Assembly (NCBI RefSeq): GCF_055900595.2
Contig: NZ_CM148325.1
Length of the DNA: 64,000 nt
Direction: 5' to 3' (one strand)
Below, in pieces: positions 44,899 to 48,323 of the stretch. The translations under genes were made by a program, and so were the position numbers. The first letter of the stretch is position 1. Each line of letters starts with the position of its first letter. The notes beneath the pieces are model-generated. The model had not been told where the DNA came from. It saw only the letters and a program-made list of their open reading frames with translations, and did not search any database.

Positions 44899-44914
44899 GT
44901 TCACTAAAAAATAG

Positions 44915-44944
44915 AACGGGGCCAAATCGGTCCCGTTTTTTTTT
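44915..44944 (+). terminator. glgP intrinsic terminator
   Basis: CGGGGCC-aaat-GGTCCCG hairpin followed by T9. Confidence 0.85.
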
Positions 44945-44992
44945 GCCTTTATTTCGGAGAAGTGTCCAGAGGGGCAAGGGGACTCGGGGGAG

Positions 44993-44998
44993 TATAAT
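44993..44998 (+). promoter_or_regulatory. Candidate -10 hexamer (TATAAT) for the accessory operon; no good -35
   Basis: Exact TATAAT 18 bp upstream of the first ATG of the 505-aa ORF. Confidence 0.3.
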
Positions 44999-45015
44999 TT
45001 CGCCATTCAGAAAGA

Positions 45016-46533
45016 ATGGAAAGAATAATGCAAAACAGAAAATGGATTTTGACCTCGCTGATAATGACTTTTTTCGGCATCCCCATACTGACGCAATTTT
45101 TGGCAGCGGTTATTGCCATGCTGGGGGCCGGGCTTGCCGCTATTCTTGAGGTTTGCAATTTTCTCTTTACGCCAACAATTTATCTTCTACTCAACGTCTT
45201 TATGCTGACGCTGGGGGCGATAATTCTATTTTTCTCTGGTCGCGTGTGGGCCGGTGATAGCGCACCAGAAAACAGAGAAATAGCCGTCTGGCGGCAATGC
45301 TTTTTTCTTTTACCTGCACTGTTAACTCTGGTTGGCTGGATAATCACGCTACATCTGGCAGATTATCAATTTCGCCAAATGGGAGCAGGTTGGTTGGCAG
45401 AGCTTATGCTCCCCTGGCTGGGAGTTTTGTTAGTCTCATTAGTCGGAGGTGAGTTCTGGTGGATAGTCATTATACCCGTTGGTGCGCATATTAGTTTTTC
45501 GCTGGGGTATGGCTGGCCGACCAGATATCCTTTAACCGGCACGTACGGGTTACGTTGCCGTAATTCCCTCCTGTTTATCCTTCTTATGCTTGGTTTTATC
45601 GCTGGTTATCAGGCTTATTTATATAAACAGCTTAATCCCGGCGTCGGTGTGCGTGAAAATATTGATACCTGGGCCTGGCGACCCGATAAACTCAATAATC
45701 AACTGACGCCACTGCGTGGTAAACCGCAAATTCAGTTTACACAAAACTGGCTGCGACTCGATGGTGCTACGGCGGCGTACCCAATTTATGCTTCTGCCTT
45801 TTATGCGTTGAGCGTTATACCGGAAGATTTCCACACCTGGGAATATCTGGAGAACTCTCGTACCCCCGATGCATATAACAGGATTGTTAAAGGTGATGCC
45901 GATATTATTTTTGTGGCGCAACCTTCCGGTGGGCAGAAAAAACGCGCAGAGGAATCGGGCGTCACTTTGAACTACACTCCTTTCGCCCGTGAAGCATTCG
46001 TTTTCATCGTCAATGCGGATAACCCGGTTAATTCCCTGACTGACCAACAGGTGCGTGACATCTTCAGTGGCGCAATTACCAACTGGCGTACTGTTGGCGG
46101 TAACGATCAGGAGATCCAGACCTGGCAACGCCCGGAAGACTCTGGCAGCCAGACAGTGATGCAATCGCAGGTCATGAAAAATGTCCGCATGATCTCGCCG
46201 CAGGAAACCGAAGTGGCAAGCATGATGGAGGGAATGATTAAAGTTGTTGCCGAATACCGTAATACAAACAACTCAATAGGCTACACCTTCCGCTATTACG
46301 CAACACAAATGAACGCTGACAAGAATATCAAATTAGTAGCGATTAACGGTATTGCACCGACTGCGGAAAATATTCGTAACGGCAAATATCCGTATATCGT
46401 CGATGCCTTTATGGTAACGCGGGAAAATACTACGTCAGAAACACAAAAACTGGTCGAATGGTTTTTAACGCCGCAGGGGCAGAGTCTGGTGGAAGATGTG
46501 GGTTATGTACCGTTGCATACAACAATGAAATAA
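45016..46533 (+). CDS. Hypothetical fusion protein: N-terminal polytopic membrane domain (about 215 aa) plus C-terminal substrate-binding-like domain (PstS-like)
   Basis: 505-aa ORF (alternative start at Met5, 45028, with better SD); 6 or more hydrophobic helices; C-terminal domain about 60% identical to the next ORF (IIFVAQPSGGQKKRAEE..., WQRPEDSGSQTVM). Confidence 0.8.
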   Translation: MERIMQNRKWILTSLIMTFFGIPILTQFLAAVIAMLGAGLAAILEVCNFLFTPTIYLLLNVFMLTLGAIILFFSGRVWAGDSAPENREIAVWRQCFFLLPALLTLVGWIITLHLADYQFRQMGAGWLAELMLPWLGVLLVSLVGGEFWWIVIIPVGAHISFSLGYGWPTRYPLTGTYGLRCRNSLLFILLMLGFIAGYQAYLYKQLNPGVGVRENIDTWAWRPDKLNNQLTPLRGKPQIQFTQNWLRLDGATAAYPIYASAFYALSVIPEDFHTWEYLENSRTPDAYNRIVKGDADIIFVAQPSGGQKKRAEESGVTLNYTPFAREAFVFIVNADNPVNSLTDQQVRDIFSGAITNWRTVGGNDQEIQTWQRPEDSGSQTVMQSQVMKNVRMISPQETEVASMMEGMIKVVAEYRNTNNSIGYTFRYYATQMNADKNIKLVAINGIAPTAENIRNGKYPYIVDAFMVTRENTTSETQKLVEWFLTPQGQSLVEDVGYVPLHTTMK

Positions 46534-46558
46534 CTTTTGAGAGAACGGAATCAGCGCG

Positions 46559-47551
46559 ATGAATAAATTCATAGGCGTTTTACTGCTAGGTGCGGTTTTA
46601 CTGGCGGGATGTGTCGACCGGGAAGGGTACTATAACAGCGTCAGGGAAGAAGAGAGTCATGGACTGACGTCTCTGCGGGGGCAACCTGAATTACGTTACA
46701 ACGATGATTGGTCAAGATGGCCGAGAGTGTACGGCGCTACAGCCTTATACCCGCTGTATGCCTCCGCGTATTATGAATTAGTACCCGAGCCAAAAGATAA
46801 GGATCGAACCTCGCTGGCCTGGCAGGCGTATGGTTTGCAACAAACCCGAACAGCTGAAGCCTACGATAGTCTGATCAAGGGTACCGCGACGGTTATTTTT
46901 GTTGCACAACCGTCGGAAGGACAGAAAAAACGTGCAGAAGAAGCAGGCGTTAAACTGAAATATACCGCGTTTGCCCGCGAAGCCTTTGTCTTTATCGTTG
47001 ATATCAAAAACCCGGTTAATTCACTTAGCGAACAGCAGGTCAAAGACATTTTTAGCGGTAAAGTGAGTCGCTGGAATAAAGTGGGCGGCGGTGACGAAAG
47101 TATAAAAGTCTGGCAGCGGCCAGAAGATTCTGGAAGCCAAACGGTTATGAAGGGACTGGTTATGCAAGATACTCCAATGCTGCCAGCCAAAAAATCCACT
47201 GTTATCGATCTTATGGGCGGTTTAATTACCGAAGTCGCCGACTACAAAAATACACCATCTTCTATTGGATACACTTTCCACTATTACGTCACACGTATGA
47301 ATGACAATATGCTCAAAATGCGCAAACAGATCAAACTGCTGGCTATAAATGGCGTTGCACCTACAGAGGAAAATATCCGTAACGGCACTTATCCGTACAT
47401 GATTGATGCTTATATGGTGACGCACGAAACCCCTACGCTGGAAACGCAGAAATTCGTCGACTGGTTTTTAAGCCCGCAGGGACAGCAATTGGTAGAGGAT
47501 GTGGGGTATGTGCCGATTCATGACGCATCATACGAATCATCAGTGCAATAA
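46559..47551 (+). CDS. Hypothetical lipoprotein with substrate-binding-like domain (paralogue of the preceding C-terminal domain)
   Basis: 330 aa; signal peptide with lipobox LLAGC (Cys18); VIFVAQPSEGQKKRAEE and WQRPEDSGSQTVM motifs shared with the 505-aa ORF. Confidence 0.85.
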   Translation: MNKFIGVLLLGAVLLAGCVDREGYYNSVREEESHGLTSLRGQPELRYNDDWSRWPRVYGATALYPLYASAYYELVPEPKDKDRTSLAWQAYGLQQTRTAEAYDSLIKGTATVIFVAQPSEGQKKRAEEAGVKLKYTAFAREAFVFIVDIKNPVNSLSEQQVKDIFSGKVSRWNKVGGGDESIKVWQRPEDSGSQTVMKGLVMQDTPMLPAKKSTVIDLMGGLITEVADYKNTPSSIGYTFHYYVTRMNDNMLKMRKQIKLLAINGVAPTEENIRNGTYPYMIDAYMVTHETPTLETQKFVDWFLSPQGQQLVEDVGYVPIHDASYESSVQ

Positions 47552-48153
47552 TGATGAATAAAATCAGACTTTATATTCCTCCGTTAATTCTTGGTTTTGT
47601 TATTGTGCCGTTGTTGGTGTGGCCGACGGTGGTTGCGCTGGCTGCTTCTGTTATCACGCTGAGTTTTCTGGGAGAGATACTGTTCTCTATCCCGCTCATG
47701 ATCAGGCGTATTTCACTTCTGCAATTACAACTATGGTTATCGGCTGAATATGCGCTTTTCTGCTGTGCAATGGTGGGCGTTGGTTGGCAATTTGCTCGTA
47801 TAACTCAATCTGAATTGAAAAGCAGACTGCATTGTTGGCTGGTATTTGCACCAGTTTATTTCTGGTTGCTCCTGTGGAATATCATTTTCTATGTCGCGCC
47901 AGCGAATATTGCGTTGCTGGAGAATATGCGCAGTTTCTTTCTGACAGTTGTCTGGCTCCCACTAAATTTTTCGCCATTTTGGTCTCAACCGTGGATTGAC
48001 TTTGTCGGTCCAATAAGCGCACAGCTTGGTTTTGCGTTGGGATATTATTGCCAGTGGCGTAGCAAAAATAGAAGCCAGATACGGAAGTGGAGTGAGTGGG
48101 GAACGTGCCTGAGTTTTGTTACGTTGGGTATGATGGCGTGGGCTTTGCGGTAA
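47551..48153 (+). CDS. Hypothetical polytopic membrane protein (200 aa)
   Basis: Start overlaps the preceding stop (TAATG); 5-6 hydrophobic helices; loosely resembles the N-terminal domain of the 505-aa ORF. Confidence 0.7.
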   Translation: MMNKIRLYIPPLILGFVIVPLLVWPTVVALAASVITLSFLGEILFSIPLMIRRISLLQLQLWLSAEYALFCCAMVGVGWQFARITQSELKSRLHCWLVFAPVYFWLLLWNIIFYVAPANIALLENMRSFFLTVVWLPLNFSPFWSQPWIDFVGPISAQLGFALGYYCQWRSKNRSQIRKWSEWGTCLSFVTLGMMAWALR

Positions 48154-48202: not shown

Positions 48203-48301
48203 CATGCCGGATGCGACATGAACGTCTTATTGGCCTACAAGACCATGCAAATTCAATATATTGCATAAGCCACGTAGGCCTGATAAGCGTAGCGCATCAG
48301 G
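48203..48301. repeat. Pair of REP elements (BIME) followed by a T-tract
   Basis: tgccggatgcgacatgaacgtcttattggcctaca and cgtaggcctgataagcgtagcgcatcaggca then GTTTTTTG. Confidence 0.85.
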
Positions 48302-48323
48302 CAGTTTTTTGTTTATCATCAGT

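Follow-up and report, generated by a model that had tools for sequence, protein, structure and literature searches.

The hypervariable islet that separates glgP from glpD on contig NZ_CM148325.1 (RefSeq assembly GCF_055900595.2), of which a stretch of 64,000 nucleotides (nt), here called the window, was analyzed, contains a three-gene unit. The unit consists of the open reading frames (ORFs) A, B, and C (Table 1). ORF A belongs to a widespread but uncharacterized family, present in at least eight genera, whose members combine a polytopic membrane domain with a C-terminal PstS-like domain. B is a derivative which has retained the binding domain alone and gained a lipoprotein signal, and C is a derivative which has retained the membrane domain alone. 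As the comparisons described below show, the three genes are old paralogues that were joined by gene-cassette swapping and not by local duplication. We consider it probable that this cassette-assembled unit encodes a transporter-independent oxyanion receptor (A), a separate binding head (B), and a membrane module (C).

The binding domains of A and B are clearly paralogous, as had been proposed in an earlier, sequence-only reading of the locus. Residues 224–501 of A and 30–321 of B share 57% identity over 292 columns (E 3e-118). The three ORFs were recovered at the stated coordinates on the + strand, and so were all sequence strings quoted from them. No further copy of the binding domain was found in the 64-kb window. 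Residues 246–485 of A match the Pfam family PF12849 (PBP_like_2; i-E 3.9e-30), and both proteins match TIGR02136 at E values of about 1e-34 (119.0 bits for A and 121.1 bits for B). The top Foldseek matches of the binding domain are 4gd5, 9l8j, 1twy, and 4q8r (E 1e-13 to 6e-15, target TM-scores 0.66–0.78), and comparison of hidden Markov models (HMMs) likewise matches the domain to solved phosphate-binding proteins. Residues R372, S376, G377, and S378 do not vary among A and B types, and the ligand is probably some oxyanion. In addition, the signal peptide of B, as read from the translation, ends in a lipobox of the pattern L-[AS]-[GA]-C (MNKFIGVLLLGAVLLAG-C18), and a lipobox is also present in the B-types of Pseudocitrobacter and Salmonella. 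According to the established +2 rule, the valine at position +2 would direct B to the outer membrane.

C is homologous to the A-type membrane domain. As it has no binding domain, it is related to the family at the level of this domain and does not count as a full member. The sequence-only reading had noted this resemblance and had added that only the binding domain would be duplicated if the N-terminal domain of A gave no significant alignment score with C. Naive pairwise comparison indeed gives none: BLASTP of A residues 1–215 against C returns one 35-residue segment (E 0.024), Smith-Waterman and global scores lie 1.7–3.1 standard deviations above composition- or window-preserving shuffles, and hhalign with shallow, Escherichia-only profiles yields P 0.019 and a probability of 2.5%. 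These values would suit an explanation in which the binding domain alone was duplicated and the likeness of the membrane domains is compositional, owing to tryptophan-rich transmembrane helices. At the level of profiles, HMMs, and structures, however, the resemblance proves real via the wider A-type family. When 31 diverse membrane domains of the A type were combined in a profile, this profile aligned with the C family over 166 colinear columns (hhalign probability 97.7%, E 1.4e-12). The score of this alignment is 81, compared with 19 for the reversed control and with shuffled controls that reach a mean of 27 and a maximum of 57 (5-column windows) or a mean of 19 and a maximum of 32 (10-column windows).

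The strongest similarity is found to the Salmonella-type clade of A proteins, with which the C family aligns over 188 columns (probability 99.1%, E 8e-19), as opposed to E 1.6e-4 for the membrane domain of the adjacent Escherichia A. The C-family HMM matches the A-type protein P0186 over its full length with 62 bits in HMMER. BLASTP aligns C with P0186 at 29% identity over 200 columns (E 2e-9), and P0264, a diverged relative of C, is 34% identical to the same protein (E 2e-13). C and the A-type membrane domains have the motifs G-x-P-L-L and P-x-x-(S/A)-Q-x-G-F-x-L-G-Y-Y in common, and K/R-rich loops are located at equal places in both families.

The structural models are in line with these alignments. 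In the AlphaFold2 (AF2) model of A, which has a mean predicted local distance difference test (pLDDT) score of 90.5 and a predicted TM-score of 0.81, the N-terminal domain forms helices at residues 2–46, 53–81, 87–114, 124–144, 149–169, and 177–206. The model of C shows nearly the same layout, with helices at residues 9–45, 56–84, 92–115, 121–133, 154–171, and 176–199. Its single credible Foldseek match in AFDB50 is A0A5B0K5B8, an A-type protein of 499 amino acids (aa; probability 0.99, TM-score 0.52), and all remaining matches have TM-scores of at most 0.38. Together with the deep-profile, HMMER, and BLASTP alignments and the shared motifs, this refutes a compositional likeness. That the membrane domains resemble each other by chance was likewise rejected on the basis of deep-profile hhalign with its controls, HMMER, and the BLASTP matches to P0186.

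Searches of Pfam and NCBIfam with the membrane domain of A and with C returned no family, and neither sequence nor fold of the A membrane domain matched the transporter families compared, namely the permeases of ATP-binding cassette (ABC) transporters, DctQM of the tripartite ATP-independent periplasmic (TRAP) transporters, and TctA of the tripartite tricarboxylate transporters (TTT). For C, a word-index search and a full HMMER profile scan of 1.84 billion representatives retrieved only Escherichia-type sequences, fragments, and the one diverged relative P0264. C has no wider stand-alone family detectable by these scans.

Homologues of about 500 aa which cover 97–99% of A are found in Klebsiella, Salmonella, Intestinirhabdus, Phytobacter, Budviciaceae, Leminorella, Leclercia, and Brachymonas, and about 74 A-type proteins share the conserved N-terminal membrane domain of about 200 aa. 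In this family, sequence change is faster in the membrane domain, which shows 28–35% identity where the binding domains share 60–65%. Low identity between A and C alone does therefore not exclude a common origin with B. In neighbor-joining trees of the binding domain, every deep branch consists of proteins of about 480–520 aa, and the fused form, with the membrane domain preceding the binding domain, is therefore ancestral. The Escherichia A proteins form a clade of their own (100% bootstrap) which B joins in 0 of 500 replicates. Instead, B of the window groups with an orthologue at the same locus in Pseudocitrobacter (99% bootstrap). The phylogeny, which the sequence-only reading had put forward as a check, thus identifies the fused arrangement as the older one and contradicts a sister relationship between B and its neighbor A.

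Downstream of the Pseudocitrobacter orthologue of B, and overlapping it by 4 nt, lies a gene for a 351-aa A-type protein (L014 7002-8057) with an intact membrane domain and an internally deleted PstS-like domain. This protein may represent a natural intermediate of binding-domain loss. It was also considered as an orthologue or intermediate of C itself, a candidacy that was dropped given a BLASTP E value of 0.016 and its absence from the top matches of the C HMM. In E. coli TA054, A is followed at this site by two B-types.

The order of the genes can be traced through the variants of the locus. Cassettes are exchanged at precise junctions in the glgP–glpD islet, a hot spot of recombination. 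The A-B-C arrangement is found in 881–885 of 5,426 complete E. coli genomes (about 16%), including O157:H7 and BL21. Other E. coli genomes carry A followed by genes for a 236-aa and a 255-aa protein and by C′ (about 70% identical to C), A followed by the 255-aa gene and C′, or a fimbrial operon in place of A followed by the 236-aa gene, the 255-aa gene, and C′. In K-12, only yzgL is left, a 222-nt 5′ remnant of A, and the rest of A as well as B and C have been lost. In other E. coli, the gene that comes before C and is translationally coupled to it is the unrelated, cytoplasmic 255-aa gene. A similar pair exists in a distant lineage (L005), where a 278-aa homologue of this gene overlaps the gene for P0264 by 13 nt, and in Superficieibacter the remnants of the 236-aa gene, the 255-aa gene, and C have merged in one ORF.

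Both ends of the B cassette can be located in these comparisons. Homology across the variants stops directly after the stop codon of A, which marks the left breakpoint, and restarts at window position 47519, within B. In a DNA alignment, the last 10 codons of B (HDASYESSVQ) prove homologous to those at the tail end of the 255-aa gene (YDASSESPGK). This tail is native to the 255-aa family, as the 278-aa homologue of the distant lineage reads CAMHDVS. Since the end of B derives from the 255-aa gene and both breakpoints are identifiable, B arrived by cassette replacement. B thus replaced the 236- and 255-aa genes in an older A-236-255-C locus, and the order of B before C is secondary.

This history contrasts with the in-place tandem duplication proposed in the sequence-only reading, in which a unit of membrane and binding domain was duplicated and one copy was split and reversed to B followed by C. 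The homology of both domain pairs is consistent with such an event, and the depths of divergence roughly fit, as a binding-domain identity of 60% between A and B pairs, in this family, with a membrane-domain identity of about 30%, and C is 29% identical to its nearest A-type membrane domain. The model conflicts, however, with the placement of B, which has its orthologue in Pseudocitrobacter and never groups with the adjacent A, with the closer affinity of C to Salmonella-type A proteins than to its neighbor, with the pairing of C with the 255- or 278-aa gene in other E. coli and in the distant lineage, and with the tail of the displaced 255-aa gene at the end of B together with the identifiable breakpoints. 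Duplication with permuted domain order is thereby largely refuted, and we regard it as highly improbable. Another explanation takes B and C as a working two-piece version of A, in which the lipoprotein B docks on C and rebuilds an A-type receptor. The translational coupling of the two genes (TAATG), purifying selection on both, the stable presence of A-B-C in 881–885 complete E. coli genomes, and the Pseudocitrobacter orthologue of B, which is also followed by a membrane-domain protein with a 4-nt overlap, would all fit this arrangement. Yet the valine at +2 predicts sorting of B to the outer membrane and away from C, C is coupled equally tightly to the unrelated cytoplasmic 255/278-aa gene in other variants, the adjacency of B and C arose through cassette replacement, and Salmonella carries B-type genes without a C-like neighbor. 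A two-piece receptor is therefore considered unlikely.

The ratio of nonsynonymous to synonymous substitution rates (dN/dS) between alleles is 0.18 for C, 0.14–0.29 for the membrane domain of A, 0.08–0.12 for the binding domain of A, and 0.10–0.14 for B. These low values indicate that all three are functional genes and that C is under purifying selection and is not debris. No gene for an ABC permease, ATPase, or kinase was found near A- or B-type genes in the window or in the loci of Klebsiella, Salmonella (two loci), Pseudocitrobacter, E. coli TA054, Budviciaceae, Brachymonas, and Leminorella. The membrane domain has no conserved acidic or His residues, and its conserved positions are confined to G, P, W, R, and F, which favors an anchor or contact module over an enzyme or coupled carrier.

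The likeliest role of A is that of a membrane-tethered oxyanion receptor which works without a transporter. A would be a self-contained inner-membrane protein that holds its oxyanion-binding, phosphate-like domain at the periplasmic face and would not feed an ABC transporter. Its membrane domain would serve as anchor and partner-contact module and not as an enzyme or ion-coupled carrier. In B, the same binding domain would be attached to a lipid anchor, probably in the outer membrane, and C would represent the membrane module alone, functional in its own right. More speculatively, the A-types could form a new class of transporter-independent envelope proteins, in which a PstS-like oxyanion-binding head sits on an undescribed membrane domain that contacts other envelope machinery and in which the two halves, B in the outer and C in the inner membrane, work apart. 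Such proteins might act as sensor or buffer of periplasmic phosphate-type anions or as protective proteins of Rhs-linked islands, but this extension is doubtful at present.

Several results weigh against the overall reading. A and B score below the 206.6 bits that NCBIfam sets as its curated cut-off for TIGR02136. In 4gd5 and 4q8r the phosphate motif is S-T-S, which aligns with G-A-T-A in the binding domain, and the discriminating Asp of the “ASRD” motif in solved relatives aligns with the invariant S304. Monophyly of all B-types receives 40% bootstrap. The AF2 model of C, for which C-family sequences alone were used, has a low confidence (pLDDT 60), and its Foldseek match to A0A5B0K5B8 has an E value of 0.46. 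For the membrane domain in general, six full membrane passes clash with the positive-inside pattern. A search for Pho boxes across the window, including the region upstream of A, found none, and the literature on yzgL, STM3528, YbbD, and PstS in connection with Rhs and immunity yielded nothing relevant. A different biology is furthermore hinted at by two genomic contexts. An Rhs orphan array in Salmonella enterica (L009 1-12993) contains two interspersed B-type lipoprotein genes, and proteins of the YbbD_head family (NF007301) follow A in Klebsiella, Salmonella, and variant II of E. coli. NF007301 is the family of ybbD, which sits in the rhsD locus of K-12.

These contexts would be expected if the unit were an orphan immunity-type island tied to polymorphic toxins, such as those of the Rhs type or of the type VI secretion system, with A, B, and C as envelope immunity or protective proteins and not nutrient receptors. 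The S. enterica array holds DPxGL core-end fragments, an HExxH metallopeptidase-like toxin domain, an Ntox34 fragment, a HEAT-repeat protein, several small lipoproteins, and immunity-like genes among the Rhs C-terminal fragments, and the islet itself is hypervariable and contains small lipoprotein genes. The B-type genes of the array precede the toxin fragments and do not follow them. At the window locus, however, no toxin gene and no Rhs core or fragment was found, A-type genes outside Enterobacteriaceae occur in unrelated contexts without toxin-type neighbors, and no match to a known immunity family was obtained. The anion-binding motif is moreover the same in all A and B types, an invariance that suggests ligand binding. 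An immunity island is thus not a likely explanation, and the transporter-independent receptor, with B and C as separate derivatives, remains preferred.

The layout of the unit is summarized in Table 1. The glgP terminator forms the boundary between glgP and the A-B-C unit. The region 5′ of A is kept in the alignment of E. coli, Klebsiella, and Salmonella despite a different upstream gene in Salmonella, and with its TATAAT hexamer it represents a probable promoter. Three candidate starts were compared for A: the ATG of the longest ORF at 45016, the RefSeq start at 45025, and the ATG at 45028 (MQNRKW), with which the Klebsiella and Salmonella homologues align. The last of these, which is preceded by a Shine-Dalgarno-like motif (GGAAAG), is the likely true start. 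The stop codon of B and the start codon of C share one base. Repetitive extragenic palindromic (REP) elements between C and glpD account for the many scattered megablast matches of the 3.6-kb query (a median of 18 places per E. coli genome).

Table 1. Features of the A-B-C locus in window coordinates; the last row lists a repeat protein from other loci, in the coordinates of those loci.
Feature	Position	Strand	Description
glgP intrinsic terminator	44913..44949	+	11-bp stem and T run; from terminator scan and sequence
Upstream region of A	44950..45015	+	conserved across genera; perfect -10 hexamer TATAAT at 44993-44998
ORF A	45016..46533	+	505 aa from first ATG; A-type, membrane domain and PstS-like domain
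Membrane domain of A	45016..45633	+	aa 1-206; six predicted helices (AF2)
PBP_like_2 (PF12849) domain of A	45751..46470	+	aa 246-485; R372-x3-S376-G-S378 anion-binding motif retained
ORF B	46559..47551	+	330-aa lipoprotein, PstS-like domain only; begins 25 nt past the A stop
Lipoprotein signal peptide of B	46559..46612	+	lipobox L-L-A-G-C; Cys18 at 46610-46612; residue +2 is Val; read from translation
Right recombination junction	47519..47551	+	last 10 codons of B (H321-Q330) and stop; from DNA alignment
ORF C	47551..48153	+	200 aa; free-standing homologue of the A-type membrane domain
Two REP-type palindromic elements	48206..48303		between C and glpD, outside the gene unit
Repeat protein of about 142 aa	L005 1686-2114; L011 7569-8006; L014 8216-8659; L016 2987-3412 and 8636-9064		

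The comparison of loci also revealed further variation of the islet. At least five islet arrangements are present in E. coli (compared loci L002, L003, L004 1-4700 from KMS2005, and L021). The allele of the window is unusually diverged from other E. coli alleles (L002 and L003), with dS values of 0.2–0.4 for A and of about 1.0 for C compared with C′, and only 9 of the 5,426 genomes carry an allele of at least 99% identity to it. This divergence suggests that the alleles are old and balanced or that one was imported from a different Escherichia lineage. Conserved Cys motifs such as VVCCEYC and DECLCAM are present in the 255/278-aa protein (L002 7460-8227; L005 121-957), which is always translationally coupled to C and has no match in Pfam or NCBIfam. 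The 236-aa protein has no Pfam match and in NCBIfam only a sub-threshold N-terminal match to NF007301.

In Superficieibacter electus the A-type gene (L011 5814-7484) is broken and most of its membrane domain is deleted; the next ORF, of 179 aa, is a chimera of pieces of the 236-aa gene, the 255-aa gene, and C and thus a decayed variant-II arrangement. Distant A-type paralogues are located near ruv genes, between ruvC and ruvA in Salmonella (L013 8001-9497) and overlapping the end of ruvB in Brachymonas (L018 6001-7503), an adjacency which may be coincidental. Finally, a secreted protein of about 142 aa with “TTYRD-x-NG-N/H-x-x-G” repeats adjoins glpD in several genera (Table 1) and flanks the islet on both sides in E. 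coli TA054.

The A-type members of about 500 aa contain a so far undescribed membrane domain which could be defined as a new family. Thousands of enterobacterial genomes, O157:H7 and BL21 among them, contain genes of this group under annotations such as “hypothetical protein”, the RefSeq name of C. Gene C can be recognized as a free-standing, selected copy of this membrane domain. The A- and B-type genes examined are unlinked to ABC transporters, and the existence of fused and split forms offers a ready experimental handle on the role of each half. The genes are common and carry annotations already, and a ligand or phenotype would have to be known before the practical consequence became more than modest.

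Among known systems, the PstS/PBP_like_2 proteins of PstSCAB (PF12849; TIGR02136 “ptsS_2”) share their fold with the binding domains of A and B, which also match E. coli PstS. The R-x3-S-G-(S/T) anion-binding motif of PstS is kept in A and B. In contrast to PstS, A and B score about 120 bits against a cut-off of 206.6, their first phosphate-contact motif is altered, and they have neither pstCAB-type partner genes in the loci examined nor a Pho box. Furthermore, A carries a polytopic membrane domain of about 205 aa in place of the signal peptide. The yzgL pseudogene of K-12 occupies the same glgP–glpD locus as A, of which the window holds the intact three-gene form. OpuA and GlnPQ are ABC importers in which substrate-binding domains are fused to membrane domains, and A likewise joins a binding-protein fold covalently to a polytopic membrane domain. 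However, the membrane domain of OpuA and GlnPQ is a recognizable ABC permease with a partner ATPase, whereas that of A matches no permease family and has no linked ATPase gene. The occurrence of fused A beside the single-domain B and C also resembles “Rosetta-stone” gene fission, a pattern used to infer functional linkage. In contrast to such fission, B and C were not split in place but have separate histories and were juxtaposed by recombination.

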